A stretch of 64,000 nucleotides of DNA, taken from NCBI GenBank assembly GCA_965220385.1, contig OZ244825.1, positions 2,441,142 to 2,505,141 on the forward strand, written 5' to 3'. Shown one piece after another: positions 1,599 through 49,202 of this stretch. Every line of letters starts with the position of its first letter. Position 1 is the first letter of the stretch. The DNA is from Candidatus Poribacteria bacterium. GTDB taxonomy: Bacteria; Poribacteria; WGA-4E; PCPOR2b. The notes under the pieces were generated by a model. That model saw nothing but the letters and a program-made list of their open reading frames with translations, searched no databases and was not told where the DNA came from. A program made the translations under genes and the position numbers.

Positions 1599-2372
1599 AT
1601 GCTTGATGTCGAACTTATCGATCCTGCTGAAGTTGAACGAGCAGCGGCTATCTTCCATCAAGATGGGTTCGTGCCCATCAAAGATGCGCTCAACCCTGAA
1701 CAGCTTGCATATGCCCAATCGGGAGCAACCCGCGTTATCACGCAACAGATGCGGGACATCCCACTTGAAGAGGCAAACCGGGGATATGCACGGTACTCCT
1801 TCGGACCGCAACTTCATCATCCGGAGTGGGTTCAACTTATTGACTTGCCAACCATTCTGCCGATAGTGGAGGCCATCTGGGAAAGTTCCGAGTACATCTG
1901 TTCTGGCGGTGGAGGTGACTACTCGACGCCCGGCGCGAAAGAGCAACACCTGCACGCCGATATCCGAGATGTTTTCAACGACCCATTGAATTCAGTGACA
2001 GTCCACGATGTGCCGACGCCGTATATTGTTGTAAATTTCCTGATGGTTGAGTTCAAGAAAATTAACGGTGCCATTCGGTTTGTACCGGGAACCCATCGCA
2101 CGCGTCAACCCGTTCCGACGACGGAGGAGGAACCTGACCGAATGAAGGAGTCGATTATCTGTGCGCCAGCCGGAACGGCGCTTATCCGGGATGTACGCTG
2201 CTGGCACGGCGGCACCGCCAATAATTCCGATGAGATTCGACCGATGACCAGTGTTGGGTATTTCGCACCTTGGTTCCGTTTGCCCAATCTAGAGCCCTCG
2301 CTCCCGCGTCCACTCTATGAAACACTATCCCCGCGTGGCAAGGAACTGGCTCGCTATATTGTTCAACCGTGA
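1599..2372 (+). CDS. phytanoyl-CoA dioxygenase (PhyH) family Fe(II)/2-oxoglutarate dioxygenase
   Basis: The 257-aa ORF has an HxD…H facial triad context (HLHADIRD, FVPGTHR) typical of the PhyH family. An AAGGA RBS is present. Confidence 0.75.
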   Translation: MLDVELIDPAEVERAAAIFHQDGFVPIKDALNPEQLAYAQSGATRVITQQMRDIPLEEANRGYARYSFGPQLHHPEWVQLIDLPTILPIVEAIWESSEYICSGGGGDYSTPGAKEQHLHADIRDVFNDPLNSVTVHDVPTPYIVVNFLMVEFKKINGAIRFVPGTHRTRQPVPTTEEEPDRMKESIICAPAGTALIRDVRCWHGGTANNSDEIRPMTSVGYFAPWFRLPNLEPSLPRPLYETLSPRGKELARYIVQP

Positions 2373-2437
2373 TGGGTTTCTGCTGTTGATCCCAATTCTG
2401 CTTTATTTTTAGACAATCCAAAAAAGGAGATGGACCG

Positions 2438-3487
2438 ATGGATGCTCTCGATCTACGTCAACTGCCCGCTGCCTCTGAAGTTTATCTCTGCCATGACGAA
2501 GGCTATTTTCCTGTCATTATCAGTCCACAGGATGAAGAAATCCTTGCAATTCTGCGGGGTGGCGCGGGACATGTGGGCATCACTGGACGGCTGGATGCAG
2601 TACGCTCTCTGGATGGCGGTAAAACGTGGGAAGCACCGATTGTTATCGTGGATACCGAGGTGGATGACCGAAATCCGGCAGTGGGACAAGCTCCCGATGG
2701 AACTGTTGTGCTCGCCTACCATGCACAAGGCTCTTACAACGAAGATGGGAGTTGGGCGAGCGACTTACGTCGCGTTCAGATGCGGGTCACGCGATCTCAT
2801 GATGGTGGCGCGACATGGGAAGCATCTCAGCCGCTCAACTACACACCGATGGAAAAACACTCTGCTTATGGGCGCATCTGTACCCTAACTGATGGAACAA
2901 TGCTTATGCCGATCTATGGGAGTGCTATCCAAGAGGCTGAGCGGACGGACGACTGCGCTTACATCCTGCGCTCACGCGACAACGGCCAAACGTGGGACGC
3001 CCCCACTCTGATCGCTGTAGGTTACAACGAAACAGGACTTATCTCGTTGCCTAACGGTGATTTGGTGGTTGCCATGCGCTCTGGCGATCAACGTGCTTTC
3101 TTAGCGACATCTCGCTCTGTTGATGGTGGGGAGACATGGACCGAGCCAACCCCTGTTACTACTGACCGTGAGCACCCTGCCGACTTGACGCTGCTTTCCA
3201 ACGGATGGGTTATCCTATTCTTCGGTGTGCGGCATGAGCCTTTTGGTGTACAGGCGCTTGTCAGCAAGGATAATGGGCAGACTTGGGATGAACGGCGGCT
3301 GATTGTGTGTGACGATCTTGGTGATAACGACTTGGGTTATCCTTCCACAGTCAAGATAGGTGATCAACTCGTAACGGTGTACTACAGCGCACCGCGAAAG
3401 TGGAATGCGCCCGATTTTCGTGGCGAAGGTACTTTCGCTCGTGGGCTACTTTACAGCGAAAGTGCGTTGTTGGCAGCGGTTATGTGA
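2438..3487 (+). CDS. BNR/Asp-box repeat protein, sialidase-like (GH33-like beta-propeller)
   Basis: Four or more Asp-box motifs of the form SxDxGxTW are present (SHDGGATWE, SRDNGQTWD, SVDGGETWT, SKDNGQTWD). The RBS is GGAG. No signal peptide is seen. Confidence 0.75.
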   Translation: MDALDLRQLPAASEVYLCHDEGYFPVIISPQDEEILAILRGGAGHVGITGRLDAVRSLDGGKTWEAPIVIVDTEVDDRNPAVGQAPDGTVVLAYHAQGSYNEDGSWASDLRRVQMRVTRSHDGGATWEASQPLNYTPMEKHSAYGRICTLTDGTMLMPIYGSAIQEAERTDDCAYILRSRDNGQTWDAPTLIAVGYNETGLISLPNGDLVVAMRSGDQRAFLATSRSVDGGETWTEPTPVTTDREHPADLTLLSNGWVILFFGVRHEPFGVQALVSKDNGQTWDERRLIVCDDLGDNDLGYPSTVKIGDQLVTVYYSAPRKWNAPDFRGEGTFARGLLYSESALLAAVM

Positions 3488-3538
3488 AACGTGATATGCT
3501 TTTCGCCCTGTTAAAGATAAAGCGAGGAGGGGTGCGAT

Positions 3539-11898: not shown

Positions 11899-12774
11899 TT
11901 ATTCGCGGATGAACTTCTGCATCCGAGCGTTATCACCCAACATCACTTCACCCATGTAGAGGTCGCCGTGCGAGTCCATCCAAAGCCCATGGGCACCGCC
12001 GAGAAACTCCCCCGGTACTTCACTCGATGCTGCACCACCCCAGCGGGTGATCAGTTCACCATCTAATGTATAAATGAGGAATTCATGGTCCAATCCAGCG
12101 ACATAAACGACATCATCGTTGGGGTCAAAATAGATTGTGTTAGGCTGTGGAACATCGGTCCATTCAGTCAGGTAATTCCCATTGGTATCGAAGATTTGGA
12201 GACGGTCGTTTGAACGATCGCAAATCCAGACACGGTCTTCTCTATCTATGCGGACACAGTGGGACAGGGCGAACTGCCCCGGTCCATCACCACGCTCGCC
12301 CCACGACAATAGTAACTCACCGTCGGGCGAATACTTGTGGACGCGTGCATTTCCGTAACCGTCCGAGATGAACAACTCCCCGGTAGAGGCAATCGCCAAG
12401 TCAGTCGGGGAATTGAATGGATCGCCGTCCGCGGGTGCGGCAGTGCCGGGCGTACCCAGCGTCAGCGTGAGTTCACCATTCCGATTGAATCTGAAGACGC
12501 AGTGATTATCATTGTCGATGCAATACACATTATCTTCACCGTCAATGTAGATGCCGTGTGCTGCCTTAGGAGGAAGAACACCGCTACCCCAGGTCTCCAA
12601 GAAATTTCCATCCCGATCAAAAACCGCCAGTGGATTTTCGCTCCGCGAGTAGGCAAAAACTCGATCTTGCGAATCGGTCGCTACCGCTGGAATCCATCCC
12701 CATTCCCAACTGTCAGGCGTTTTATCCCAATTCTCTGCTACCGTGTATCTATATTTACCTGTACCAAATATCAT
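11899..12774 (-). CDS. NHL-repeat six-bladed beta-propeller protein (peptidylglycine amidating-lyase-like fold)
   Basis: Repeated blocks of about 40 aa carry Asp/Gly-rich turns (DxxGNxY, VxDxxNxRIQxF-like). The RBS is GGAGG. No signal peptide is seen. Confidence 0.55.
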   Translation of the reverse strand: MIFGTGKYRYTVAENWDKTPDSWEWGWIPAVATDSQDRVFAYSRSENPLAVFDRDGNFLETWGSGVLPPKAAHGIYIDGEDNVYCIDNDNHCVFRFNRNGELTLTLGTPGTAAPADGDPFNSPTDLAIASTGELFISDGYGNARVHKYSPDGELLLSWGERGDGPGQFALSHCVRIDREDRVWICDRSNDRLQIFDTNGNYLTEWTDVPQPNTIYFDPNDDVVYVAGLDHEFLIYTLDGELITRWGGAASSEVPGEFLGGAHGLWMDSHGDLYMGEVMLGDNARMQKFIRE

Positions 12775-12923
12775 GTTCTATACCTCCAAATTGCGCGCTG
12801 ATTTATCGCCATCTCATAATTGAAGTCTCGAACTCGAGTTTAGAAGATACAGGAAAACGATCGTCCTGTCAAGCCCGAAATTAGATGCTGGGACACCTGT
12901 AAGAAAATATCCAACTGCCGCGA

Positions 12924-14087
12924 GTGGAACGTGAATCGGGAAGAGATTTTCTGTTGACTCGGGCATACGTTATCGGTAAAATGGATCTGCCTTTTTCCAG
13001 AGAGCAAACACAGATGTGGAGAGCGAAGAGGCCGTCAATGGGCAATGTGGAAGGTACGATCGAACTGGTCAAGCGCGATGTCCTGCTATCAAATTCGGGA
13101 CGATACGGCATCCCGGACGAACAGCTGCATTTCCCCTATCTGTATGAATCCAATAATGGCAACTGGTACATGACATATCGTGAGGGACCACATTTCGAAT
13201 CAACATTTGGTCCCGGCAATCGTGTCCAGTGTATCCAGTCGAGGGACAGAGGACGCACATGGCTTCCGTGGATGGGACTGGAGGTCGAACCTTTCCTGCG
13301 TCAGTTCTTTGTTACGCGGCTACAGGATGGGGGCCTTATCAGTTACCGATGCCGGATGGCAAAGCTTTATCAGTCATCTGGCGACACGCTCGAAGGCACA
13401 GCGATTATTCTGCGTTCTCAGGACGAAGGGGCGACTTGGACCCGACATAATGTGCCGGTAGCTAATCTGCCTTTCAGTTTGGGCAGCCAACTTGTCTCGC
13501 TCTGGGGACATGTGGTCGAGATGCCTGATGGGCGCCTGTTATGGCCCGTTTATAGTCGTGAAGGAAATACGATCTCTGGGGTCGTCCAATCTACAGATGG
13601 TGGGCACAGCTTTAAGTGGCTTGCGAATGTGTGCGAAGATAACACTGTCGGCGAGCGGCGTGAGCCGGGACTGATACGACTCCCCTCTGGAGAACTCCTT
13701 GCCTTAATCCGGTGTGGGACGCAACCATCTCGTCCCATGGTGGAGGTTCGCTCAGCCGATGACGGACGGACGTGGAGTTCGCCGCGCAGGCTTGCTCGCC
13801 CCGGCGTATGTCCCCAACTGATGATGCTGGGAAACGGTATCTTGGTATGCAGCTACGGTACGCGGAGATATGTGCATGTCATGGCAAGTTGGGATGGGGA
13901 AGGGGGGCAGTGGTCGGCACCCTTGGTGCTCTATGAGGGTCAAACTTCAGGCTATAGCAATCTCCAAGCGTTAGCCGATGACCGTTTCCGAGTTGTATAT
14001 CAAGAGGGATCGTTCGATGCCTATCAGGAGGGCGGCAATCGGCTTGTGCGCTCCGAGATCCAGATTAGACCGAAACGTTCGCCGTGA
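12924..14087 (+). CDS. BNR/Asp-box repeat protein, sialidase-like; start uncertain (GTG at 12924; ATG with GAGG RBS at 13038)
   Basis: Asp-boxes QSRDRGRTW, SQDEGATW, STDGGHSF and SADDGRTWS are present. This is a paralog of the 2438..3487 protein. Confidence 0.65.
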   Translation: MERESGRDFLLTRAYVIGKMDLPFSREQTQMWRAKRPSMGNVEGTIELVKRDVLLSNSGRYGIPDEQLHFPYLYESNNGNWYMTYREGPHFESTFGPGNRVQCIQSRDRGRTWLPWMGLEVEPFLRQFFVTRLQDGGLISYRCRMAKLYQSSGDTLEGTAIILRSQDEGATWTRHNVPVANLPFSLGSQLVSLWGHVVEMPDGRLLWPVYSREGNTISGVVQSTDGGHSFKWLANVCEDNTVGERREPGLIRLPSGELLALIRCGTQPSRPMVEVRSADDGRTWSSPRRLARPGVCPQLMMLGNGILVCSYGTRRYVHVMASWDGEGGQWSAPLVLYEGQTSGYSNLQALADDRFRVVYQEGSFDAYQEGGNRLVRSEIQIRPKRSP

Positions 14088-14107: not shown

Positions 14108-14968
14108 TCACTCAACTGTGGGACCGTCCCCAGCTAAGGTTGTGCGGTGAAGAACGCGCTTGTACTTCCCACGATCCCAAGACCGTCCCCGGTGTAGACA
14201 GCAACGGTTATCGTACACAACAAGGTCATGTGCCCGCCATCGGTGGCGATACACAAACTGCCGTTGTGTTGCCCATTCAAGGAGTTCTTTCAGCAGGGCT
14301 TGCCCCTCTTCGGTTGGTAAGTCGTGAACGTGGGTTGTGTATGACCCGACCAAGAGCGCCCTCTTTCCGGTTTCGGGGATGGTGCGCACCAAGCGGTGAT
14401 CAACCGGTGGGGTATCTTTCTGGAACGCGTCACTCATCAGGTTCGGAGCAATCTGCGCCCGTGAGTATGCGATGCTATGCTCGGCGATTAGTTCCTCGAT
14501 ATCTGCTTTTTTCTTGTCAGGCAGGGCTGCATAGGCGGCAGTAAGACTGGCAAACTCAGTTTCACCCCCTTCAGGCGGCACAATCTTGGCAGAAAGTAAG
14601 GAGCCACGCAAGGGTACACGCTTGAACGAGCCATCGGAGTGCCAGAGCGTGTTGGCAACAGTATAAAGTGTCCGGGGATCTTCCGGCGGAATGATGTCGC
14701 CTTTTTCGTCGAGGTTGGAGATTACCCCAATAGGTCCACCGTCACCGATTGGGTCATTTGGCATCGTCATTTCGAGTGGGCCAAACCCTTCGCTGAACGT
14801 CACGTGCTGCGCGTCAGTGATTTCTTGATCGTGGAATACGAGCACTCCATACTCGCAGAGCGCACCGCGAAGTTGCTCAAATGTTTCTGCATCGATGGCC
14901 GAAGTGATGTCAACACCTTCCACTTCCGCCCCAATATAATCTTCCAATTTCCTAATTGTCAGAGCCAT
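14108..14968 (-). CDS. TauD/TfdA-family Fe(II)/2-oxoglutarate dioxygenase
   Basis: The 286-aa ORF has HxD…H ligands (WHSDGSF, …H near the C-terminus) in the TauD fold order. The RBS is GAGGA. Confidence 0.8.
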   Translation of the reverse strand: MALTIRKLEDYIGAEVEGVDITSAIDAETFEQLRGALCEYGVLVFHDQEITDAQHVTFSEGFGPLEMTMPNDPIGDGGPIGVISNLDEKGDIIPPEDPRTLYTVANTLWHSDGSFKRVPLRGSLLSAKIVPPEGGETEFASLTAAYAALPDKKKADIEELIAEHSIAYSRAQIAPNLMSDAFQKDTPPVDHRLVRTIPETGKRALLVGSYTTHVHDLPTEEGQALLKELLEWATQRQFVYRHRWRAHDLVVYDNRCCLHRGRSWDRGKYKRVLHRTTLAGDGPTVE

Positions 14969-20696: not shown

Positions 20697-21773
20697 ATGG
20701 CAGAAATGCACTGTTTCAACGCAAGCTATCTGCATGCAGTGACGCGACAACTGTTTCTGGCAGCGGATACGCCGCGTCATATCGCTGAGGATGTCGCTGA
20801 AATCTTGATTAACGCCAACCTCGCTGGGCACGATTCGCACGGCGTGCTCCGCATCCCCGGCTATCTAAGCAGTATCTCAAGTGGGGGGACTCAACCTGCC
20901 GCTGAACCAGGGGTGTCCAACGAAACCACCAATACCTTCCGTATTGACGGGAGGGACGGTTTTGGACACTACACTGCTCGACAGGCAATGGAACGGGCGA
21001 TTGAGAAGGCAAAGGCTGCGGATACCTGTGCTGTGAGTTTTATCAATACCGGGCATATCGGTCGACTCGGTGAATATGCGGAGCAGGCGACACGTGCGGG
21101 GTGTATCGGCATCATCACCTATGGCGGCGGTGCACGGGACAGAGGGGGTACTGTGCCTTTCGGGGGCGCGCGCGGTGCTCTCGGCACCAATCCGATTGCG
21201 GTCGGTGTGCCAACCGGGGACGACTGTCCATTCATCATTGATTTTGCTACCAGTATGATTGCCGCGGGTAAAGTTTCGGTCGCTGCAAGCATGGGTGTTG
21301 ATCTGCCTGAAGGTTGTATTGTGGACAAGCACGGCAACCCTAGCGTTAAGACAGCGGACTTCAGTGATGGCGGATCTCTGTTAGCGTTTGGTGGGCATAA
21401 GGGTTACGCATTCTCCCTCCTTGTATCCTTGTTCGCCGGTCTGTCTGGTAACTTTGATATTGAGGCCGCTTCCATGGGCAGTAACACGTTGATGCAGGTT
21501 ATCAACATCAGTGCCTTTACGCCATTAGAACCTTACCAACAGGGGGTTCGCGCGTTTCTCGACGGAATTAAGGCTATACCATCTGCACCCGGTTTTGACG
21601 AAGTGCTGGTTCCGGGTGACTTTGAATATCGTTCCCGCTCCCAACGACTTGCTGACGGGGTCAATGTTCCCGATACTATCTATCGTCAACTTCAGGAATG
21701 CGCGGAAAAATTGAACTTCTCCCTGAGCGAAGATCTTGTCGAACCCGCCGATGCGGAACGATACCAAACGTGA
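20697..21773 (+). CDS. Ldh_2-family (malate/L-lactate dehydrogenase family 2) NAD(P)H-dependent oxidoreductase
   Basis: The 358-aa ORF carries the GHDSHG motif typical of the Ldh_2 family, which includes ureidoglycolate, sulfolactate and Pip2C/Pyr2C reductases. Confidence 0.8.
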   Translation: MAEMHCFNASYLHAVTRQLFLAADTPRHIAEDVAEILINANLAGHDSHGVLRIPGYLSSISSGGTQPAAEPGVSNETTNTFRIDGRDGFGHYTARQAMERAIEKAKAADTCAVSFINTGHIGRLGEYAEQATRAGCIGIITYGGGARDRGGTVPFGGARGALGTNPIAVGVPTGDDCPFIIDFATSMIAAGKVSVAASMGVDLPEGCIVDKHGNPSVKTADFSDGGSLLAFGGHKGYAFSLLVSLFAGLSGNFDIEAASMGSNTLMQVINISAFTPLEPYQQGVRAFLDGIKAIPSAPGFDEVLVPGDFEYRSRSQRLADGVNVPDTIYRQLQECAEKLNFSLSEDLVEPADAERYQT

Positions 21774-28547: not shown

Positions 28548-29348
28548 ATGCTCACGGAACAACAGGTGAACCACTTCGATACCTTCGGGTTCCTAATCTT
28601 CCGGCAGCTGTTCAGTCCGGAGGAGGTGAAAACCATTAACGCAGAGTTTGAACACGCCTTAACCTCTGCCTACCGCCACGCTCCATTTGATGGCACCTAT
28701 AGACATTGGGTTCGGACAATGGGCCCTGAAACTCCATTCTTCGCTGGATTGCTTGAAGATCCCCGTTTCTGCGAACCGACAGAGCAGTTGTACGGTGAAG
28801 ATTGCCTCGGTATCGTTTCTGATGCCAATCGTTACGTCGGTCACACACGCTGGCATCCAGACCACCTTGTCGATCCAACGGAAGATTGTTACGGCGTCAA
28901 ATTCGCGTACTACCTCGAACCGGTCGGCGCAGAAACTGGGGCGCTGCGACTGATTCCAGGTTCGCACAAGGATCCATTACATAGTTCACTGCGAGAAAAT
29001 CTGGACAGTTATCAGCTTGAGATTTGCGACGTTCCAGCTTACATCTGTGAATCCGAACCGGGTGACGTCGTCGCCTTCGATGTCCGTTGTTGGCATGCAA
29101 GTTGGGGCGGCGCGATTGACCGGCGGATGTGCACCGTAGTCTACTATAAGAATCCCAAAGGTCCTGAAGAGGAAGCAGCAACCCGCAAGCGAGCCACTAA
29201 CAGTGTGAAGGAACCAAATAACTCTGGGCTGCCCTTTGAGACCCATCGCGATATCATGCGCCACTGGACTGCCAATCATGAAGGTAGCGCAAGACGTCAA
29301 CGCTGGATCGATCGTGAACGAGAACTTGGATTTCTAGACTATCTTTAG
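28548..29348 (+). CDS. PhyH-family Fe(II)/2OG dioxygenase (second member of the second tandem pair)
   Basis: MLTEQQVNHF is about 60% identical to the preceding ORF. The RBS is GGGGAGG. Confidence 0.75.
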   Translation: MLTEQQVNHFDTFGFLIFRQLFSPEEVKTINAEFEHALTSAYRHAPFDGTYRHWVRTMGPETPFFAGLLEDPRFCEPTEQLYGEDCLGIVSDANRYVGHTRWHPDHLVDPTEDCYGVKFAYYLEPVGAETGALRLIPGSHKDPLHSSLRENLDSYQLEICDVPAYICESEPGDVVAFDVRCWHASWGGAIDRRMCTVVYYKNPKGPEEEAATRKRATNSVKEPNNSGLPFETHRDIMRHWTANHEGSARRQRWIDRERELGFLDYL

Positions 29349-33019: not shown

Positions 33020-34192
33020 TTATTTGGCGGTTTGGTACGGTTCCCACGCCTCGCCTGCCGCCGCCGCTTGCCGTTCTAACTCGGTGCGCCAACCGATAAC
33101 CTCACCAGCTTTAATCCGATTGATGTCAAACCCCGGATACCGGTCCTCGAGGGTATCACCCAACTTCTGCGTTACCGCCCAACGGTCCCACGTGGTCTTC
33201 ATCCACTCGTGGGGCAGTGCCTCACGCACAGCAGGATCGAGTTGCCACGCATTTCGCACATCTGCCACCGATGGCTCTTCTGTGGACTCGCCCGACCATC
33301 TCGACCAACCGATTGACAAGGTGTTCCGTTCACGTTCAGGGACCGCGTGCCCCGTGTGAATGGTGGCACCGTTGCGGATGAGCGCTTGCCCCGGCTTTAG
33401 CCGAATCGCGACTTGACCCGGCAACGGGTCTTTACCGTTCCAACTCGGTGTGTGCGGCACACCTGCGTCCTTCATCGCTTGTGGAAGGAGCACATCGTGT
33501 TCATACGGTGTGCGCCATCGTTTGTGGCTGCCCGGTATCAGTTCGTGACATTCGTCATCCACCAACGCCAAGAACATACTCACCCCGTTGCGCTCCGTAG
33601 TTAGCTTCTCATTGTTCTCCTGGATCTCTTTCCAGCGGATTCTTTCGATCTCCTCGGTGTACGCCTCAGGTCCGTCGCCTCGGACCTCGCGCTGTGCAAA
33701 GTAACCCGCGCCGGTGCCCCACCATGTCACGTCTCTGTGCCAGCTGGGACCGTTTTCTCGCAGTTTCGGGTTACACCACAGCAGCATCCCACCCATCACC
33801 AGATCCTCCGGTTCCAGCCCATTACACCAAGAGGCAACAAAGCTAAGGAACTCCGGCGACCCGTGGAATTCGGCAAAACTAGGTTCCTTAAAGGCGGGAT
33901 GGATGAGTCCTCGAATTGCCCACGGTTCATCGTCACCTGTGCGGTGCACGTATGCTTTTGAACAGTCGATCTTGCTGTAGCCGTTAGCGGGGGCACACGC
34001 CTCAGTCACGCGGCGCCCCGCTTCGCGCAGGATCGGGATCCACGGACTATCTTCAAAGTCGTTGATGATAAGGTAGCCGTGTTCTTTCAGGTGTTCCAAA
34101 CGCTCCGGTGTGGCTCCAGGGGCAGAAAGTTCTGGTTTGAAGTCGGCAAAGGCAGTCGCACGGTAAGGTTTCGCTGCTTGATCAGTACTCAT
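33020..34192 (-). CDS. PhyH-like Fe(II)/2OG dioxygenase (extended, ~390 aa)
   Basis: An IPGSHKRW motif and a distal His are present. The start MSTDQ sits 7 nt from an AAGGAGG RBS. Confidence 0.5.
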   Translation of the reverse strand: MSTDQAAKPYRATAFADFKPELSAPGATPERLEHLKEHGYLIINDFEDSPWIPILREAGRRVTEACAPANGYSKIDCSKAYVHRTGDDEPWAIRGLIHPAFKEPSFAEFHGSPEFLSFVASWCNGLEPEDLVMGGMLLWCNPKLRENGPSWHRDVTWWGTGAGYFAQREVRGDGPEAYTEEIERIRWKEIQENNEKLTTERNGVSMFLALVDDECHELIPGSHKRWRTPYEHDVLLPQAMKDAGVPHTPSWNGKDPLPGQVAIRLKPGQALIRNGATIHTGHAVPERERNTLSIGWSRWSGESTEEPSVADVRNAWQLDPAVREALPHEWMKTTWDRWAVTQKLGDTLEDRYPGFDINRIKAGEVIGWRTELERQAAAAGEAWEPYQTAK

Positions 34193-34703: not shown

Positions 34704-35828
34704 ATGAAAATAACCGGGTTTGAAACGATCCCGATACGTGGACGCGCGATGGTCTTGAAAATGTTCACCGACGAAGGCTTAGTCGGTTACGGTGAACCGA
34801 TGAACTACGCGCATTGGCGTCCAGTCGCTCAAGCGGTAGAGGATATGGGGGAATATCTGATAGGCAGAGATCCCTTACAGATCGAAGACCACTGGCAGGC
34901 GATGTTCCGGTCCAGTTACAGCCGGAGTATGCCGGTCCTTGTCGGTGCGCTGAGCGGGATCGAAATGGCGATGTGGGATGTGTTTGGCAAAGCGGTGGGG
35001 CTACCAGTATGGAAACTGCTGGGCGGCTCAGTGCGTCGGCGCGTCCGTGTCTACACGGCTTCAGGTGGTTCAACACCACAGGAGTGCGCGGAAAACGCGA
35101 AGGCCGCTGTTGAGAGAGGTTTCAGTGCGTTAAAGATGGGCGGGTCCCAAGGTCCCGTGCGCTTTGTGGACACACCGAAAGCGATCGATGAAATGGTCGC
35201 GCGAGTCGCAGCGGTGCGCGAAGCGGTGGGCGATGAAGTCGATATCGGTGTGGATCTCCATCGACGGTTCAGTCCCACCATGGCGACAATTTTCGTGAAG
35301 GAGTTGGAACCTTTACGTCCGATGTTTGCCGAAGAACCGTGCCACCCGGAGAACAACGAACCATTGTTGGCGTTATCACGGTCAACGACAGTGCCGATCG
35401 CGACGGGAGAACGCCACCTGACGCGGTGGAGTTTCCGTGAAGTAATCGAGCGTGAAATGTGCGCCATTCTGCAGCCCGATATCCGACACTCCGGCGGGAT
35501 AATGGAACTGAAAAAGATTGCAACGATGGCAGAGATCCACAACATGGCGATCGCGCCCCACAACGCAGCCGGACCCATCGGTGTGGCAGCATCAGTACAT
35601 GTCATGGCAACGATACCTAACCTGCTAATTTGCGAGGGCGGACACAATCGCGGACAAGGGCTGTTTAACGAGCCACTGACCCTGAAGGATGGATTTATCG
35701 AACTGCCAACGGCGCCGGGTTTGGGCGTCGATATGGAAGATGAAGCCATCGAAGCATTTCGGGACGACACCTTCCAGTTACGGGGGATGTTCTGGCACGA
35801 GGACGACGGTTCCTTTGCCGACTTCTAA
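34704..35828 (+). CDS. enolase-superfamily dehydratase (mandelate racemase family, GalD/ManD-like); second copy
   Basis: The 374-aa ORF shares the capping-domain and barrel motif order of 328..1512. The RBS is AGGAG. Confidence 0.8.
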   Translation: MKITGFETIPIRGRAMVLKMFTDEGLVGYGEPMNYAHWRPVAQAVEDMGEYLIGRDPLQIEDHWQAMFRSSYSRSMPVLVGALSGIEMAMWDVFGKAVGLPVWKLLGGSVRRRVRVYTASGGSTPQECAENAKAAVERGFSALKMGGSQGPVRFVDTPKAIDEMVARVAAVREAVGDEVDIGVDLHRRFSPTMATIFVKELEPLRPMFAEEPCHPENNEPLLALSRSTTVPIATGERHLTRWSFREVIEREMCAILQPDIRHSGGIMELKKIATMAEIHNMAIAPHNAAGPIGVAASVHVMATIPNLLICEGGHNRGQGLFNEPLTLKDGFIELPTAPGLGVDMEDEAIEAFRDDTFQLRGMFWHEDDGSFADF

Positions 35829-38485: not shown

Positions 38486-40555
38486 TCACTCGGTCGATTT
38501 TGCCGCAGGGGAGGTGAGCTGCCACAGTAAGGTTGTCCCGTCTTCGCTTCCGCTGGCAAGTGTCCTTCCGTCGGGCGAAAATGCGACGGAGTGAACCCGT
38601 GCGGTATGGCCTTCAAAGGTTTCCTTGTGTTTTCCGGTGTCGACCTCCCATAATCCAATCGTGTGGTCCCAACTACCGCTGGCGAGCGTCTTTCCGTCTG
38701 GCGAGAAGGCTACAGCAAAGATATAGTCCATATGACCATCAATCGTTGCTTTCTCTTTCCCAGTTCCCGCGTCCCATAGCTGAATCGTATCGCGATATCC
38801 TCCACCCGCAAACGTCTTGCCATCTGGAGAGCATGCTAACCGAATAACCCAATCCGTCCCACCGGAAAGGGTTGCCTTGTGAATCCCGGCGTGAGTATCC
38901 CACAACCGGATCGTGTGGTCCTGACTTCTACTTAATAGAGTAACACCATCTGGGCAGAATACGACGAAGGTAACCTGATCGGTGTGCCCCTCAAGCACTG
39001 TGTTCTGTTCCCCGGTGCCAACGTTCCACAGCCGGATTGTATGGTCCCAACTGCCGCTCGCAAGCGTTTTGCCATCAGGGGAAAATGCGACGGAATTGAC
39101 TTCGGCCGTGTGACCTTCGAGTGTTGCCTTCAGTTCCGCGGTCTCTACCTCCCATAGTCGAATCGTATAATCGTCGCTGCCGCTCGCAAGTATTTTGCCA
39201 TCAGGGGAAAACGCCACCGCGGTGCCCCAGTCCATATGCCCCTCAAGAGTTGCCTTCTGTTCTCCGGTGTCCGCCTCCCATAGTCGAATCGTGTAATCAT
39301 CACTGCCGCCGGCAAGTGTTTTCCCGTCCGGAGAGAATACCACAGAGGGAAACCGAGCTATGTATCTGTCCAAGGCTGCTTTCTGCTTTCCGGTAGTAAC
39401 CTCCCACAACCGGATTGTGGAGGTCAAAAGGGTCGCGCTGTGCTTTCCGGTGCTAGCCGCTCCCAACCACATCATGGAATCCTGGCTGCTACTTGCCAAC
39501 GTGTTCCCCTCCGGGGAAAATACCACGGATTGTACATCATGTGTATGTCCTTCAAGAGTTGCCCTAACCTCTCCTGTCTCCACATCCCATAGCCGGATCA
39601 TTCCGTCGTAGCTGTTACTGCTCGCGAGCGTCTTACCGTCTGGCGAAAACGCGACGGGAAAGATGGCATCCCCGTGCCCTGTAAGCGTCATCTTGATGGT
39701 TCCTGTTGCCATGTCCCAGAACCGGATGGTATTGTCCCAGCTGCCACTAGCGAGGGTGTTTTCATCTGCTAAGAATGCCAGGGAGAAGACGGAATCCGTA
39801 TGTCCGGTAAGCGTCATTTTGACCTTTCCAGTCTCCATGTCCCAGCATAGAATTGTGTCATCCTCGCTGCCACTGGCAAGGATCTTTCCATCGGCGGAAA
39901 ACGCAATAGAATAAACGGCACCCTGATGCCCAAAAAGAGTTTGCAGATGCTCCCCTGTAGCGGCATCCCACACCCTTATCATTTCGTCCCAACTTCCGCT
40001 TGCCACTGTCTTCCCGTCTGGCGAAAAGATCACAGAACTGACATCATGCCCATGCCCCTCAAGGGTTGCCCTAAGCCGTCCGTTCTTGATGTCCCATAGC
40101 CGTATTGTCCCGTCGTGCCCACCACTGCTCGCGAGGGTCTTTCCGTCTGGTGAAAACGCCATGGATCTGATATCATGGCCATGTCCACTTATGGTTGCCT
40201 TATGCTGTGTTGTGGCGGCATCCCACAACCGTATTGTTTCGTCAATGCCACCGCTGGCGAGGGTCTTACTGTCCGGGGAAAAGGTCACAGAAAGTACCCA
40301 ACCGGTATGTCCAGTGAGAAGGGCGATTTCCGCACCAGTACCTAAATTGTACAGCCAAACGCCGATGGTACTTGCTACGGCAAGCTGAGTGCCATCGGGT
40401 GAATGTGCTATATCAAGAACCCGCCCCTTACCGAGACGCACTTTCGCATCTTTGGGCAAATTCCATTGATTACAATCTTGAGCGAGGGTGTTTGAGTGAA
40501 GAAGTAGAGTGGAAACAAACAGAATGGCGAGATTGAGAAATCGTCTCGTTGTCAT
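38486..40555 (-). CDS. secreted WD40-repeat beta-propeller protein (~14 WD repeats)
   Basis: An N-terminal signal peptide ends in …NTLAQ. Repeating units of about 42 aa (GHxxxVxSVAFSPDGKTLASGSxDxTIRLWD) run through the 689-aa protein. Confidence 0.85.
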   Translation of the reverse strand: MTTRRFLNLAILFVSTLLLHSNTLAQDCNQWNLPKDAKVRLGKGRVLDIAHSPDGTQLAVASTIGVWLYNLGTGAEIALLTGHTGWVLSVTFSPDSKTLASGGIDETIRLWDAATTQHKATISGHGHDIRSMAFSPDGKTLASSGGHDGTIRLWDIKNGRLRATLEGHGHDVSSVIFSPDGKTVASGSWDEMIRVWDAATGEHLQTLFGHQGAVYSIAFSADGKILASGSEDDTILCWDMETGKVKMTLTGHTDSVFSLAFLADENTLASGSWDNTIRFWDMATGTIKMTLTGHGDAIFPVAFSPDGKTLASSNSYDGMIRLWDVETGEVRATLEGHTHDVQSVVFSPEGNTLASSSQDSMMWLGAASTGKHSATLLTSTIRLWEVTTGKQKAALDRYIARFPSVVFSPDGKTLAGGSDDYTIRLWEADTGEQKATLEGHMDWGTAVAFSPDGKILASGSDDYTIRLWEVETAELKATLEGHTAEVNSVAFSPDGKTLASGSWDHTIRLWNVGTGEQNTVLEGHTDQVTFVVFCPDGVTLLSRSQDHTIRLWDTHAGIHKATLSGGTDWVIRLACSPDGKTFAGGGYRDTIQLWDAGTGKEKATIDGHMDYIFAVAFSPDGKTLASGSWDHTIGLWEVDTGKHKETFEGHTARVHSVAFSPDGRTLASGSEDGTTLLWQLTSPAAKSTE

Positions 40556-42808: not shown

Positions 42809-42851
42809 ATAAATCATTTCACTGAATCTTCTGTGCTGCTTGGAGACGTTT

Positions 42852-44051
42852 ATGAAGGTTGAATACCGTGCCCCACGCAACGAAGTTGAACTTGACGACA
42901 CAATTGATTGTAGTGTTCGCGCTTTCGGGGACGTTGGGGATAGACGAGACCGCTTTACAAACTTTGTCATACGCGATCCATGGTTCCACCTTAATAATAC
43001 GCGTGCCTGTTTTGTGGAGGGGAAGTGCGTGAGCGTCGTACAGGTTTTTGACCGTCCCATGCGTATCGGGAATTGTGTTGTTCGAATGGGAGCGGTTGGC
43101 AGCGTTGGCACAGATCCGATACATCGCCGCGCTGGGTATTCGGCGGAGGTGGTCCGGGACAGCATCCAGTATATGCGGGCGGCGGGTTATGATCTCTCGA
43201 TGCTGTCTACAGGCATCCAATCACATTACGCCAAAGCAGGTTGGGTAGTGTACCCGACCTACAATACGGAGGTAACCCTTCCCCCAACACTTGGGGAATT
43301 ACCAGGTGATGTGACTATTGAGCAGCATGAACCGAATCGAGATTTGCCGGTGTTAGGGCCAATTTTCGATCAATTTAATGTCAGTCGGACAGGGACGTTT
43401 ATCAAGAATCAGGAATATTGGGTTAACCGACCCACTTGGCGGCCATACGATCCGTCACTATACTGGATTGCTAAACGGGGCGAGGAAACGGTTGCTTATC
43501 TGCTAACGGAACGATGGAAGGTGGGGGAGTTGGGGTATCTACCAGATGCACAGGATGCAATGTGTGCGTTGTTCTGTCACTTCTTTCAGTGCGCACAGGC
43601 GGCGGGGGTTCAGCAGATCGACGCACCGGTGCCATCGGAGAGCCGGAAGATTTTCGAGACTATGGGTTGCGCTGTCCGAAGACGCGAACAGACCAATATT
43701 ATGGCTCGAATCATCAACTTAGAATCGCTATTGACCAAGATCAAGCCGTTGTTAGAATCCAGACTCAGAGCGTCGGACTTTTCGGGGTGGACCGGTACCC
43801 TCCGCATCCGCTACGAGGCCGACGAACGGACGTTGGTTATTTGTAAAGGCGAAATTAGTATCATATCCAATAGCGTGTCACCGCAGATTGACCTTCCCAT
43901 AAGTCAAACGCAGCTGCTGCAACTACTATGTGGAAATATGAGTGCGGAGCAGGTAGTTTATTCTAACGATCTGCAAGGGCTCGAAATCGGCTTGCTTGAT
44001 GCGCTTTTCCCTGTAGGTGAGTTATTTATATGGTGGTTGGATCGATTCTGA
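42852..44051 (+). CDS. Eis-like GNAT N-acetyltransferase (tandem GNAT domains + C-terminal SCP2-like domain)
   Basis: The protein is about 400 aa. The start MKVEYRAPRN follows a GGAG RBS 6 nt upstream. It is a paralog of the next gene. Confidence 0.5.
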   Translation: MKVEYRAPRNEVELDDTIDCSVRAFGDVGDRRDRFTNFVIRDPWFHLNNTRACFVEGKCVSVVQVFDRPMRIGNCVVRMGAVGSVGTDPIHRRAGYSAEVVRDSIQYMRAAGYDLSMLSTGIQSHYAKAGWVVYPTYNTEVTLPPTLGELPGDVTIEQHEPNRDLPVLGPIFDQFNVSRTGTFIKNQEYWVNRPTWRPYDPSLYWIAKRGEETVAYLLTERWKVGELGYLPDAQDAMCALFCHFFQCAQAAGVQQIDAPVPSESRKIFETMGCAVRRREQTNIMARIINLESLLTKIKPLLESRLRASDFSGWTGTLRIRYEADERTLVICKGEISIISNSVSPQIDLPISQTQLLQLLCGNMSAEQVVYSNDLQGLEIGLLDALFPVGELFIWWLDRF

Positions 44052-44198
44052 TTCGTCACCTGGAGTCCTATCCAAGCCAATCAAGGTTGGGGAATAAAAA
44101 AAGAATAAGAACCCGAAGAAAAATACGAGATGTCCCAATGATAGATAGCAGGTTGAGTTAGCTTCGATCTGTAACTCTATCTCTGTGTGGAGAAGTTT

Positions 44199-45398
44199 AT
44201 GAATATTGAATATCGTGCGCCGCGCAACCAAACTGAACTTCAGGATACAATTGAATGTAGCATTCGCGCTTTCGGCAGCTCAGAACATATACAACATCTC
44301 TTTACAAATATTGTCGAGCATGATCCATGGTTTGACCTCAATAACACGCGCGCCTGTTTTGTGGACGGAAAGGCTGCTAGTGTTGTACAAATCTTTGAGC
44401 GCCCCATGCGTATTGGGGATTGCGTCGTCCGGATGGGAGGAGTCGGAAGCGTTGGTACGGATCCACCCTATCGTCGTGGCGGATACTCCTCGGAGGTGCT
44501 GCGGGACAGCGTCGAGTATATGCAAACCGCCGGTTACGATCTCTCCATCTTGGGTACTGGCATCCAGTCGCACTATGCCAGATCAGGTTGGGTGATGTAC
44601 CCAACCTATACCATGACGCTCACCCTGCCCGAAACGCTTGGACAGCTGCCTACTGATGTGGCTATCGAGTCCTATGAACCCAGCCAAGATTTGCCAGCGG
44701 TGCGATCAATCTATGATCAGTTTAACGCGGCGCGAACAGGCACCGTCACAAAGAACGCAGCGTATTGGGCTAACAGACACAAATGGCGACCATACGATCC
44801 GTCGTTGTACTGGATCGCTAAACGCGACGAGAACACCGTTGCCTATCTACAAGCTGCACGGGGAGAGATAGGCGAACTGGGCTGCCTTCCAGACGAGCAA
44901 GAGGCGATGAAGGCGTTGCTCTTGCACCTTTTCCGGCATGCAAAAGCGGAGGGTATCCAGGAAATTGATGCACCAACACCATCGGGGAGCCGAAAGATGT
45001 TTGAGGCGATGGGCTGTTCCATACAGCGGAGAGAAAGTAACGGCAAAATGATTCTGATCACTAACTTTGAGTCGCTATTGACTAAAATTAAACCGTTGTT
45101 AGAATCCAGACTCAGAGCGTCGGACTTTTCGGGGTGGACCGGCACCATCCGCATCCGCTACGAGGCCGACGAACGGACGTTGGCTGTCCGTGATGGAGTG
45201 ATCAGTGTCGTCCCCGAAAGCGCCTCACCCGACATCGACCTTCTCTGTAGTCAGTCGCAGCTACTCAAACTGCTGTTCGGAAATATGAGTGCTGAGCAGG
45301 TTGCTTTCTCCAACCGTCTGAGAATTGCCGAAATCGGTCTGCTTGATGCACTTTTCCCGGCGGACGAATTTTTTATGTGGCATACGGATCGGTTTTGA
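44199..45398 (+). CDS. Eis-like GNAT N-acetyltransferase, tandem paralog
   Basis: The start MNIEYRAPRN follows a GGAG RBS. It is about 60% identical to 42852..44051 across the full length. Confidence 0.5.
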   Translation: MNIEYRAPRNQTELQDTIECSIRAFGSSEHIQHLFTNIVEHDPWFDLNNTRACFVDGKAASVVQIFERPMRIGDCVVRMGGVGSVGTDPPYRRGGYSSEVLRDSVEYMQTAGYDLSILGTGIQSHYARSGWVMYPTYTMTLTLPETLGQLPTDVAIESYEPSQDLPAVRSIYDQFNAARTGTVTKNAAYWANRHKWRPYDPSLYWIAKRDENTVAYLQAARGEIGELGCLPDEQEAMKALLLHLFRHAKAEGIQEIDAPTPSGSRKMFEAMGCSIQRRESNGKMILITNFESLLTKIKPLLESRLRASDFSGWTGTIRIRYEADERTLAVRDGVISVVPESASPDIDLLCSQSQLLKLLFGNMSAEQVAFSNRLRIAEIGLLDALFPADEFFMWHTDRF

Positions 45399-45446: not shown

Positions 45447-46784
45447 ATGTCAATCGAAGATATCAGCAATATCAAGGCAGCTTTTGGGAAGGTTTCGATA
45501 ACGCCTCCAATTAACGATGTGTATCCGGATTTCTTCTTCAAACCTTCAGGCGTTCTTGACGACGTCTATGCCCGTATCGCGATCATCCAAGTTGCCGACG
45601 CCCCTGTGCTTGTTCTTGCTGTGGATACATTGGGATTCGGCGTAGCAGAGATCTCCGAACTTGAGGACACCATCGGCAGAGCAACCGGCATCCCATCAAC
45701 CCGAATCTTGATTGCCGGCAGCCACAGTCACTCCGCACCAATCCTGTGTCCGGTTGACCTCTTTGGCGGGTTTAGCCCGTACTTTGATGGGTTGTGTGAT
45801 CGCGTGGGTGAACTGGCAAAAGATCTATTGTCCCGCGCGGAGTCCGTTACGCTTTCGTTCGGGAAATCGAGTTGCGACTTCAATGTGAATCGACGGCGCA
45901 TAACACCCGAAGGGACCGCCGTTTCAGGTCCCAATCCGGACGGAGTCGTCGACAAAAGTGTGCCGATCCTGGGTTGTCATAACGCAGACGGTTCGTTGAT
46001 AGGGATATTCTTCAGCTACTGCTGCCACCCGACAATCCTGTTGGGACCAGAGATCTCTGGAGACTATCCGGGACAAGCTCAACTGGCGCTGGAGACCCGA
46101 CATAATCAGGCTGTTGCACTGTACCTGCCCGGTATGTTCGGAAATGTGCGTCCCAACCTATCGCAGGAGGAAAGGTTCAGAAAGGGCACCCCGCGTGATG
46201 CGATGCACTGCGGAAGCATGTTGGCGGACGCAGTGGACGAGGCATTAAAGGCTTGTAAACCGGTTTCGGTGAATACTATACGCACTCGACGCCTGAAGCG
46301 ACCTCTGCCGCTCGGTGAGCCGCCATCTCGTCAGACACTTGATGAAATTGCCGCCCAAGCAGTCAAATCTGCTCAAGTGACCGAGGAGGAAAAAGCTGGG
46401 CGTTCGGCCTATTACGCTGGTAATCAGTTGGCAATGCGTCAGTGGGTACAACAGATTCGGCTGGAACAGGTAGAGTACCGTGTCCCAACCGAAGTGGGCT
46501 ACACCTTCTCGCGATGGGACATCGGTGATGTTCGCTGGCTTACGTTCTCAGGTGAATTCTTCTTGGAATACGGGTTATATGCCCATTCGCTGTTGGGAGC
46601 AGATCGGACCTTCACGCTCGGTTACACCCAGGGATGCCAAACCTATGTCCCAACCGCACAAGCCTTGATTGAAGGCGGTTATGAGCCAAACGCTTACAAG
46701 CGGTGGGGGCAAAGCGCACCCTTTGCCCCAGAGGTCGAAGACGCGGTAAAGGCAGTCATTCGGGAATTGGCTGATGATGAGTAG
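45447..46784 (+). CDS. neutral/alkaline ceramidase N-terminal-domain-like hydrolase
   Basis: The motif GSHSHSAP resembles the Zn-binding GSHTHSGP block of neutral ceramidases. No signal peptide is seen. Confidence 0.45.
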   Translation: MSIEDISNIKAAFGKVSITPPINDVYPDFFFKPSGVLDDVYARIAIIQVADAPVLVLAVDTLGFGVAEISELEDTIGRATGIPSTRILIAGSHSHSAPILCPVDLFGGFSPYFDGLCDRVGELAKDLLSRAESVTLSFGKSSCDFNVNRRRITPEGTAVSGPNPDGVVDKSVPILGCHNADGSLIGIFFSYCCHPTILLGPEISGDYPGQAQLALETRHNQAVALYLPGMFGNVRPNLSQEERFRKGTPRDAMHCGSMLADAVDEALKACKPVSVNTIRTRRLKRPLPLGEPPSRQTLDEIAAQAVKSAQVTEEEKAGRSAYYAGNQLAMRQWVQQIRLEQVEYRVPTEVGYTFSRWDIGDVRWLTFSGEFFLEYGLYAHSLLGADRTFTLGYTQGCQTYVPTAQALIEGGYEPNAYKRWGQSAPFAPEVEDAVKAVIRELADDE

Positions 46785-46795
46785 ATGCGGGCACC

Positions 46796-46950: not shown

Positions 46951-47001
46951 TGCAAGCACTTGTGGTTGCCCTTTCTTCAAGGGTAGAGAAAAACGTGTGT
47001 G

Positions 47002-48165
47002 TCAGAATCGTGTCATGATCTGATGATAGATATCGACGGCTTTTATAACCTGCTCACACTCAACCCACTCAACTGCCGCATGTGCCTGATCAATACTGCC
47101 GGGACCAAACACGATGGAAGGAATACCGACTGAGGTAAATTTACTGGCGTCAGTACCATAAGGAACTCCCGTTATCTCTGATCTCCCAATCACAGATTCA
47201 CACGCACTGACAGCGACCTGTACGATATGCGCATCTTCTGATGTCTCCATCGGGTTGTCCATCAGGTACGGTGTCTTCATCGTGACATCCAGATCTGGAT
47301 CAGCGGCGCGTGCACGGGCTAACCGTTCCTGAAACGGTACGAGGGCTTCCTCCGGTGTCTCACCGGGGATAACCCGACGATCTATATCAATAACGCATTC
47401 GTCAGCCACGAAATTCACCTGCACACCCCCGGAGATAACGCCGATATTGAGTGTTGGACTGCCGGTGAGTGGATGGGTCATAGAGCCATAGGTCGGTGCG
47501 ATTTCATCCTCAATCGCGCAAATCAGCCGCGTCATTTTTGAAATGGCGTTTATGCCGAGATACGGCTTCGCGCTATGTGCAGCGACCCCTTTGACGACGA
47601 TGTGAAAACGTGCCAACCCCTTGTGTGCCCGAATAACCGCCAAATCGGTCGGTTCCGATACTACTACTGCGTCCGCTTGGAGGGTTTCTGCCAATCGTAG
47701 TGCACCCTTAAAGCTGAACTCCTCATCCACAGCCCCAGCGTATTTGATGGTGCACGGCGGTTTAACCCCCGCTTCCTTGAAACGCTTCATCGCGTGTATC
47801 ATTGCGACGCCGCCTGCTTTTGTGTCGCAGGCACCGCGACCATAGAGCAGGCCGTCCCGGATGTGCGGTTCATAGGGCGGGATGGTCATAACGCCAACGG
47901 AAGCCGTGTCCATGTGACATTCAAACAGTAACACGCGGCTTGGGTTTTCACCTTCTAACGTCGCGATGATATTGCTTCTCCCCGGTAACACCTCGTCTGT
48001 TTCGTAGGGGATATCTAAGGCATCGAAGAAATTCCCAAGGTATTCAACCATACCTGCTTCACCGCGCTCCCCACCCGGTAGACTGGTGTTTATGCTCTCA
48101 ATCGCCACAACATCTTGCAGCGTGGCGAGCACCTCATTATCACTACGTACCCACGATTGGCTCAT
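47002..48165 (-). CDS. M20-family metallopeptidase (ArgE/DapE/ACY1-like)
   Basis: Metal-ligand blocks (…ECHMDT…, …DTKAG…, …EE…) follow M20 order, with a dimerisation insert. The start is MSQSW with a GAGGAG RBS 7 nt upstream. Confidence 0.75.
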   Translation of the reverse strand: MSQSWVRSDNEVLATLQDVVAIESINTSLPGGERGEAGMVEYLGNFFDALDIPYETDEVLPGRSNIIATLEGENPSRVLLFECHMDTASVGVMTIPPYEPHIRDGLLYGRGACDTKAGGVAMIHAMKRFKEAGVKPPCTIKYAGAVDEEFSFKGALRLAETLQADAVVVSEPTDLAVIRAHKGLARFHIVVKGVAAHSAKPYLGINAISKMTRLICAIEDEIAPTYGSMTHPLTGSPTLNIGVISGGVQVNFVADECVIDIDRRVIPGETPEEALVPFQERLARARAADPDLDVTMKTPYLMDNPMETSEDAHIVQVAVSACESVIGRSEITGVPYGTDASKFTSVGIPSIVFGPGSIDQAHAAVEWVECEQVIKAVDIYHQIMTRF

Positions 48166-48308
48166 CAATTCTCTCCTCTTCGTAAGAGTTGAACACCTTT
48201 CACATCTTAATTCAGGGATAACCAAAAAAACATAAGACGGAGTGACGTCCTCACTGACAGCATCTTTTGGTCTGGTCTATCCCAGTAGCTTCCCTTCCCC
48301 TACTGCTC

Positions 48309-49202
48309 TTACTCTTCCCACCGATACATCTTCTTCGGCGTGGTATCCGCCTTCGCTGCATCCCACGCCTCGATCCAAGCCTGATGATCGTGTGTCACAC
48401 ACTCCGGCTGTTCACGGCTACGCACCTTAATCCCAGGCAACGGTCTGCCCCCCGGTTTCCGTGCATCGTGCCAGCGCAGATCTAAACTCCAGCGAACCGC
48501 GTCCGACAGGTTCGGCAGTGAGCCGTGTGGGGTGCGGCAGTGGATGAAGATCACCCCGCCTTTCTTCACCGGTATCGTGACTGGCTCGCCTTCGGGCATT
48601 ACCTCTGGAGCAATCGTCCAGCCGTAGGGACATCTCACATGCCTCCGAATCTCGCCGGAATGCAGTTCTGGATAGAGGTGGATCGTTCCATTTTCTTCGG
48701 TTGCGTCTACAAGAGGAATCCACGTCGTCACAACGAGCGTATCGTCCGCCTCCGGCATTAGCACAGCGGCATCCTGATGGAATGGTGACTGTTGTATCCA
48801 GTTGTCATACCCGTCCCCCATCAGAGGTTCGGGCAATTTTGGTCGCACATGATGCGTTGGATTGCAATAAATCTCTGGTCCGATAATCGGTTCAAGCAAA
48901 TCGAGCAGATTGGTATTATGCAGAAAATCAAAGACCGGACGACGAAGATTCACAGGAAACGACACCTGGCCCTGAAGGGGATCTCCCGATTCCTTCGTCA
49001 GCCAAGCGATGCGCCGGTTAAAGGGTTGGTCCTCATGACGTTCCTGTATTTTTCCATCCGCGTATAACTCCTCAGCGATGGTATCAATAAGCGTCTCAAA
49101 GTCTGCAATCAACGGATTCAGATCATCATTGTCTAACGCGTCTTCTACAACCAGATAACCGTTCGTGTGAAAGGATTCGACCTGTGCTTGTGTAAGTCCC
49201 AT
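48309..49202 (-). CDS. PhyH-family Fe(II)/2OG dioxygenase
   Basis: The start MGLTQAQVESFHTNGY follows a GAGGA RBS. An HQD motif and a distal His are present. Confidence 0.7.
   Translation of the reverse strand: MGLTQAQVESFHTNGYLVVEDALDNDDLNPLIADFETLIDTIAEELYADGKIQERHEDQPFNRRIAWLTKESGDPLQGQVSFPVNLRRPVFDFLHNTNLLDLLEPIIGPEIYCNPTHHVRPKLPEPLMGDGYDNWIQQSPFHQDAAVLMPEADDTLVVTTWIPLVDATEENGTIHLYPELHSGEIRRHVRCPYGWTIAPEVMPEGEPVTIPVKKGGVIFIHCRTPHGSLPNLSDAVRWSLDLRWHDARKPGGRPLPGIKVRSREQPECVTHDHQAWIEAWDAAKADTTPKKMYRWEE

Follow-up and report, generated by a model that had tools for sequence, protein, structure and literature searches.

Poribacteria, one of the most abundant phyla of sponge symbionts, carry an excess of genes of the PhyH family (PF05721) of Fe(II)/2-oxoglutarate (2OG) dioxygenases, about a hundred paralogs per genome. 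Kamke et al. (2014, PLoS One 9:e87353, PMC3909097) found that PF05721 outnumbers every other Pfam family in poribacterial genomes, where it accounts for 1.98–3.71% of genes (mean 2.7%, six single-cell genomes) as opposed to at most 0.49% in other bacteria. These values are from their Table S10; the main text gives <0.049% for nonporibacterial genomes where the table reaches 0.492%, which looks like a decimal slip in the text. Clustering at 60% identity divided the 305 PhyH sequences of that study into 193 groups, for most of which no function could be assigned, and poribacterial PhyH genes were reported to be abundant in the transcriptome (Jahn et al. 2016, PMC5087111). Here we describe seven PhyH genes in a single stretch of 64,000 nucleotides (hereafter the window) of a Candidatus Poribacteria assembly (GCA_965220385.1, contig OZ244825.1, positions 2,441,142 to 2,505,141).

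Our preferred interpretation, held at a probability of roughly 0.85, is that the window is an ordinary stretch of a Poribacteria chromosome displaying the known, ancient and phylum-wide PhyH expansion rather than a local burst. The PhyH excess as such has been known since 2014. A parallel with sponge-associated lineages, which the initial annotation had put forward as a hypothesis, is borne out by the origin of the window in Candidatus Poribacteria, a phylum with a published PhyH enrichment (PMC3909097).

Seven PhyH genes and their catalytic residues

The 2OG oxygenase genes of the window are the following (bit scores refer to the Pfam family named):

1599–2372, plus strand: PhyH copy 1, 257 amino acids (aa); PF05721 62.7 bits; HAD motif, distal His and Arg
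21790–22650, plus strand: PhyH copy 2 (pair A, first), 286 aa; PF05721 50.0 bits; HQD
22773–23597, plus strand: PhyH copy 3 (pair A, second), 274 aa; PF05721 61.2 bits; HQD
27671–28489, plus strand: PhyH copy 4 (pair B, first), 272 aa; PF05721 52.7 bits; HPD
28548–29348, plus strand: PhyH copy 5 (pair B, second), 266 aa; PF05721 65.8 bits; HPD
33020–34192, minus strand: PhyH copy 6, extended divergent form, 390 aa; PF05721 25.0 bits; HRD
48309–49202, minus strand: PhyH copy 7, 297 aa; PF05721 79.1 bits; HQD
14108–14968, minus strand: TauD/TfdA-family Fe/2OG dioxygenase, 286 aa; PF02668 211.8 bits

Membership in PF05721 was judged by the gathering threshold of the Pfam hidden Markov model (22 bits), which all seven open reading frames (ORFs) exceed in a Pfam scan of the window, copy 6 marginally; the family assignments made in the initial annotation were thereby upheld, including that of the eighth gene to TauD/TfdA. 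The latter is predicted to be a member of PF02668, a family separate from that of the PhyH copies, and is not assignable to TauD itself (183.7 bits against the 313-bit cut-off of the taurine dioxygenase equivalog NF007104). Pfam scans of the other ~41 window ORFs revealed no additional 2OG oxygenase. Upstream of the PhyH ATG starts there are GGAGG-like ribosome-binding sites. With 48 ORFs, which take up 88% of its length, and one more running off its end, the window has ~49 genes, so the earlier count of eight 2OG oxygenases in about 55 genes was right in its numerator and too high in its denominator. With 7 of ~49 genes (~14%), the PhyH share lies far above the usual bacterial level, as had been claimed: the binomial probability of at least seven copies at the highest nonporibacterial frequency (0.49%, PMC3909097) is ~6e-9. 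As a negative control, 78 LeuRS-anchored loci from other phyla (~1.5 Mb) were searched with tblastn, and none of the eight oxygenases had a match there.

The catalytic residues are preserved throughout the set. An HxD motif is present in 7 of 7 copies (HAD, HQD, HQD, HPD, HPD, HRD and HQD, in the order of the list), a distal His is invariant across the joint alignment of all seven, and so is an Arg ~10 residues past it (R214 in copy-1 numbering). In this family the corresponding Arg binds the C5 carboxylate of 2OG. In alignments with PHYHD1 and EvdO2, the HxD motif and the distal His fall on the metal ligands, as does the HxD in the alignment with GriE. In each copy, two His and one Asp would bind iron and the Arg the C5 carboxylate of 2OG, providing the machinery of an Fe(II)/2OG hydroxylase. 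Activation of O2 by such enzymes gives rise to an Fe(IV)=O species, which abstracts a hydrogen from the substrate; the expected outcome would be hydroxylation, or demethylation or deamination where the hydroxylated carbon bears a heteroatom. In halogenases of this superfamily, the carboxylate iron ligand is replaced by Ala or Gly. The check for this substitution that the initial annotation had called for was negative in all seven cases: since the Asp of HxD is kept in every copy, none is a halogenase, and this identity is ruled out for the entire set.

Age of the copies and alternative explanations

Outside the tandem pairs, pairwise protein identity between the copies is 19–31%, several pairs falling below BLASTP detection, and at a 60% identity cut-off the seven copies represent six deeply diverged subfamilies. 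The members of pair A (21790/22773) are 64.6% identical and those of pair B (27671/28548) 52–55%. According to the Nei-Gojobori method, used for all estimates of synonymous and nonsynonymous divergence, the proportion of synonymous differences (pS) is 0.748 in pair A and 0.772 in pair B, both saturated, with nonsynonymous divergence (dN) of 0.27 and 0.36, respectively. The longest exact DNA tract shared by the pair members is 17 nt (pair A) or 11 nt (pair B), and third-codon-position identity within the pairs is ~41–42% overall and 53–60% across the conserved N-terminal 30 codons. The saturated pS, the short identical tracts and the low third-position identity together argue strongly against both recent duplication and recent gene conversion.

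A LeuRS-anchored scan gave two related loci, both titled Candidatus Poribacteria, namely L002 (LeuRS 96% identical to that of the window) and L001 (92%), the next-best LeuRS matches being at most 66% identical and from other phyla; one of the two Poribacteria genomes is a chromosome of 6.96 Mb (OZ244950.1). L002 has both tandem pairs and L001 has pair B, with a divergence between paralogs equal to that in the window; the duplications are therefore older than the split of these lineages. The block APH–aminotransferase–GHL10–Ldh_2–PhyH2–PhyH3–VOC–LeuRS–PhyH4–PhyH5–ABC–epimerase–PhyH6 is fully kept in L002 and, from LeuRS onward, in L001. The pair-A subfamily also occurs as three tandem paralogs on a Tara Oceans contig and on a second contig (L081 3738–6510 and L082 3674–6446; 292, 268 and 274 aa, adjoining a BNR protein), and the Tara Oceans bearer of this trio is probably a free-living relative rather than a sponge symbiont. 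Overall, the copies are old paralogs that diverged long ago, and they show the diversity of the family to be ancient and not the product of a recent burst.

Comparison with the orthologs in L001 and L002 gave dN/dS ratios of 0.028–0.113 for copies 2–6 (dS being the synonymous divergence), close to the 0.044–0.049 of LeuRS. Individual values were 0.086 for copy 2 (97% identical in L002), 0.058 for copy 3, 0.09–0.10 for copy 4 (85–86% identical in L001 and L002), 0.036 for copy 5 (92–98% identical) and 0.03–0.04 for copy 6. Ratios like those of LeuRS imply that copies 2–6 are maintained genes under strong purifying selection, and these copies are predicted to be working enzymes. The window supplies intact candidates for expression and substrate screening, representing six subfamilies, with five copies shown to be under selection. 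Copy 4 stands apart in its divergence from its L002 ortholog (12644–13444; 86% protein identity, dS 0.81), copies 2 and 5 and LeuRS being far closer to theirs (96–98%, dS 0.17–0.36), which is suggestive of a deeper coalescence at this locus or of an allele replaced through recombination.

The initial annotation had explained the tandem pairs by a recent origin in this genome, followed by diversification toward related substrates. Indeed, the members of each pair are adjacent, lie on the same strand, have similar lengths and share N-terminal residues. Of the two N-terminal motifs cited, MLTEQQV[SN]HF holds exactly for 27671/28548, whereas MD[AS]ACLEH fits 22773 (MDSACLEH) only, 21790 reading MDAECLQH; such sharing reflects constraint on a segment that is conserved family-wide, not recency. 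Persistence of tandem duplicates in this genome is also illustrated by a second paralog pair nearby, two 403-aa GNAT proteins (42840–44051 and 44187–45398, plus strand) that are 67% identical and possibly Eis-like; Acetyltransf_9 is found in each of them and an SCP2 domain in one. The retention of this old tandem means that old tandem duplicates in this genome are not peculiar to PhyH. With the identities, saturated pS and short tracts given above, with pairs of the same divergence in genomes whose LeuRS is 96% (both pairs) and 92% (pair B) identical, and with homologs of both pair-A members standing in tandem with a third paralog in the Tara Oceans material, a recent local duplication is extremely improbable.

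Another explanation would place the PhyH genes, as tailoring enzymes, in a single secondary-metabolite gene cluster that extends over the whole window. The nearest characterised relatives are often tailoring enzymes of natural products (KanJ, EvdO1/2, SnoK/N, AndA, PtlH), an ABC exporter-type gene lies downstream of pair B, and mitomycin or fumonisin biosynthesis appears in the IMG annotation of some poribacterial PhyH genes that are expressed (PMC5087111). Yet among the ~49 ORFs there is no polyketide synthase, nonribosomal peptide synthetase, terpene synthase or other core biosynthetic gene, the copies occupy five separate places on both strands, housekeeping genes are interleaved with them (leuS, pdxA, a gene for an NAD(P)HX repair enzyme and one for an RNA methyltransferase), and the neighbourhoods differ in more distant homologs. 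We consider a cluster of this kind very improbable. A third alternative is that the window is a PhyH hot spot, the genes being clumped nonrandomly through tandem birth and death, shuffling mediated by insertion sequences (IS) or selection for co-location. It draws on several observations that weigh against reading the window as ordinary. The PhyH share of 14% amounts to 4–7 times the frequency published for the phylum; at the phylum rates of 2.0–3.7%, at least seven PhyH genes in ~49 have a binomial probability of 6e-5 to 2e-3 (0.003–0.03 if five separate loci are counted instead), so that a window above the phylum mean calls for clumping beyond the genome-wide average. The baseline, however, consists of published values from incomplete single-cell genomes and not of the source genome's own frequency. 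Clumps are also seen elsewhere: five PhyH genes, including a split one, within 21 kb of L084, three together with a TauD gene in 21 kb of L085 (counting an unannotated homolog of copy 6), two adjacent genes in L098 and the tandem trio of L081/L082. Because a PhyH gene served as the anchor of every comparison locus, these counts are biased upward and the clumping is anecdotal, and L097 and L100 hold the anchor copy only. Genes for IS-type transposases (DUF4096 plus DDE_Tnp_1) adjoin PhyH genes in L084 (3640–4397) and L085 (7130–7887 and 9160–9893), both from related contigs of 6.3 Mb, and the split L084 gene, in pieces of 126 and 132 aa, is probably a pseudogene; together these features hint at gene birth and death in the PhyH family. 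In the window itself, by contrast, no IS element or other mobile-element gene was seen and the G+C content is even at 50–54%. On balance, a hot spot is possible at somewhat less than even odds.

Further points of the same tendency concern function and conservation. All copies fall short of every NCBIfam equivalog cut-off (the highest score is 34 bits, where 550 are required; the equivalogs for ectoine hydroxylase, chlorinating enzyme, methylphosphonate hydroxylase and PtlH are not approached), and the nearest solved relatives are remote, with E-values of 1e-8 to 5e-4. The families of copies 1 and 7 show no consistent gene partners across loci, and these two copies have no ortholog in L001 or L002, so that the selection estimate covers copies 2–6 only. 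The interpretation as an ordinary stretch of a chromosome with an ancient PhyH expansion nevertheless remains the one that we prefer.

The extended copy and its subfamily

The PF05721 match of copy 6 is confined to residues 214–285. The protein is lengthened by ~45 aa inserted past the HxD and by an extension of ~90 aa at the C-terminus; in its subfamily the insertion is Trp-rich and conserved and the extension helical, and across the family an insertion of variable length separates the HxD from the next core strand. W151-H152-x-D154, H279 and R289 do not vary in an alignment that extends to relatives of only 25–44% identity. MAFFT put the HxD of copy 6 out of register, and its placement was settled by this conservation in distant family members.

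Sequence-based searches of the PDB gave no match for copy 6 and nothing significant for its family profile, and hhalign of the copy-6 family against the pair-A family returned a probability of only 5%, although the aligned motifs were sensible. AlphaFold2 with 25 close homologs alone reached a pLDDT of 35, as compared with a pLDDT of 70.4 and a pTM of 0.75 with a mixed alignment; as the latter held PhyH sequences, the resulting model leans toward the PhyH fold. A Foldseek search of the PDB with this model returned PhyH-type oxygenases for all of the top 50 matches (target TM 0.42–0.67), with EvdO1 first (E 6e-11), followed by DhiD, SnoN, proline hydroxylase H11, GriE, AviO1 and EctD. Judging by the model, copy 6 is predicted to have a double-stranded beta-helix fold like that of the solved PhyH-type enzymes.

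The subfamily is compact, with at least 75% identity across the best 120 database matches, most of them without Pfam annotation, and 251 representatives at E ≤ 1e-3 among 1.84 billion. In two metagenome-assembled genomes labelled Gemmatimonadota (L086 10001–11161 and L087 4880–6040), a homolog of copy 6 heads an operon for an Opp-type ABC importer beside a sulfatase gene. This compact and highly conserved subfamily of a 390-aa copy, with its post-HxD insertion, is the mildly new item here. The joint proposal that copy 6 stands for an enzyme class of the PhyH fold that has so far gone unrecognised and that poribacterial chromosomes have PhyH hot spots appears unlikely to us. Should copy 6 prove to be a new class, its substrate could be sponge-specific, e.g. 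a sulfated or methylated imported compound.

Gene surroundings and comparison with known enzymes

Copy 1 lies between an enolase-superfamily gene (328–1512) and a BNR/sialidase-like gene (2438–3487). It is thus flanked by one of two enolase-superfamily (MR_MLE) genes of the window, the other being at 34704–35828 (both plus strand, products 35.5% identical to each other), and by one of two BNR/sialidase-like genes, the other being at 12924–14087 (both plus strand, 28.7% identical). Copy 2 starts 16 nt past an Ldh_2-family dehydrogenase gene (20697–21773), copy 3 is followed by a glyoxalase/VOC gene (23679–24107), leuS (25014–27563) is directly upstream of copy 4, copy 5 is followed by a fused ABC-transporter gene (29422–31686), and copy 7 is flanked by genes for a GFO/IDH/MocA oxidoreductase (49263–50228) and an M20 peptidase (47002–48225). 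An Rfam scan of the window found no RNA family, and a 445-aa ORF (45447–46784, plus strand) matches nothing in Pfam or NCBIfam, relaxed thresholds included.

Among solved proteins, copy 1 is nearest to KanJ, the kanamycin B dioxygenase (E 1.5e-8), copy 5 to EvdO2 (E 2.5e-4) and copy 7 to human PHYHD1 (E 1.2e-8, limited to residues 140–241 in the C-terminal half), and copy 3 has weak PDB matches to GriE and TlxI (E ~5e-4). As for uncharacterised homologs, a protein 100% identical to copy 3 is in the database on a contig of 6.35 Mb, its named relatives being Candidatus Poribacteria; named homologs of copies 6 and 7 are likewise from Poribacteria, with further homologs of copy 7 in Latescibacterota, Myxococcota and Chloroflexi and neighbours that vary by locus. 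Metagenome homologs of copy 1 are 61–66% identical, with an enolase-superfamily neighbour in one only. Relatives that act on sugar moieties comprise KanJ, EvdO1/EvdO2 and PHYHD1, with SnoK/SnoN ranking lower, and the window neighbours include BNR/sialidase-like proteins, hydrolases of the apiosidase-like and GHL10 types, enolase-superfamily enzymes, a GFO/IDH/MocA oxidoreductase and ThuA. These sugar-acting relatives and the glycan- or sugar-acid-processing neighbours weakly suggest sugar-derived substrates. Gene neighbourhoods are shared by close relatives only, so that guilt by association counts for little and sugar substrates are no more than a lead. Given identities of 19–31%, the copies more likely act on different substrates. 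They could be stand-alone catabolic or tailoring hydroxylases or demethylases working on different small molecules from sponge or seawater organic matter, for which sugar-derived compounds would be plausible substrates.

PHYHD1-like proteins, including one Poribacteria enzyme, have been reported to demethylate 2'-O-methyl nucleosides (Nucleic Acids Res 2025, PMC12709175). The window copies belong to the same Pfam family as these PHYHD1/FJS demethylases, and the HxD and distal His of copy 7 align to those of PHYHD1. In contrast, the assayed Poribacteria enzyme is at most ~23% identical to any copy over the full length (copy 7, 22% and 38.9 bits; copy 3 scores best with 47 bits). With this identity, and with a PHYHD1 match that is partial and does not amount to orthology, the 2'-O-methyl-nucleoside demethylase activity cannot be transferred to the window copies.

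The sugar-modifying oxygenases of antibiotic pathways (KanJ, EvdO1/EvdO2/AviO1 and SnoK/SnoN) have the same jelly-roll fold and the same metal and 2OG ligands, and three copies can be paired with them: copy 1 with KanJ, copy 5 with EvdO2 and, by fold, copy 6 with EvdO1. They differ in that the structural alignments of copy 6 show 12–17% identity and the sequence matches have E-values of 1e-8 to 3e-4, and their antibiotic-pathway context has no counterpart in the window. With halogenases of the SyrB2/CmaB type (TIGR01762) the copies share the superfamily fold and weak matches (copy 4, 19.6 bits; copy 7, 24.3 bits), but the best of these scores compares with a cut-off of 226.3 bits, and the copies keep the Asp. 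EctD (TIGR02408) is a member of the same Pfam family, and databases often automatically name such proteins 'ectoine hydroxylase-related'; however, the copies score 16–21 bits (maximum 20.7) against a cut-off of 336.5 bits, and ect genes are absent from the vicinity. For these proteins, automatically assigned names, e.g. 'ectoine hydroxylase' or 'phytanoyl-CoA hydroxylase', are unsupported. A PhnY-type phosphonate hydroxylase was also considered and rejected (NF052437, 22 bits against a 500-bit cut-off, copy 7 only), and Pfam scans found no HD-domain match, as expected of a PhnZ-type HD phosphohydrolase, among the window ORFs.

The closest described system is therefore the PhyH expansion of Kamke et al., with which the window shares the phylum, the Pfam family, the presence of many highly diverse copies, mostly lacking a function that could be assigned, and best matches among Poribacteria. 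Other hallmarks of the genomes in that study are found in the window as well, i.e. glycan-degrading enzymes and TPR, leucine-rich and WD40 repeat proteins. The repeat proteins, all three large and of 'eukaryote-like' type, are a 689-aa WD40 protein (38486–40555, minus strand), a 957-aa TPR protein (50435–53308, minus strand) and a reprolysin-like metalloprotease fused to leucine-rich repeats (62141–64000, plus strand, running off the window end). The sole function proposed by Kamke et al., that of a PhnY/PhnZ-type 2-aminoethylphosphonate enzyme, is matched by none of the seven window copies. Beyond that study, the window adds the chromosome-level arrangement of the genes, two old and retained tandem pairs, estimates of selection and a check of the catalytic residues.

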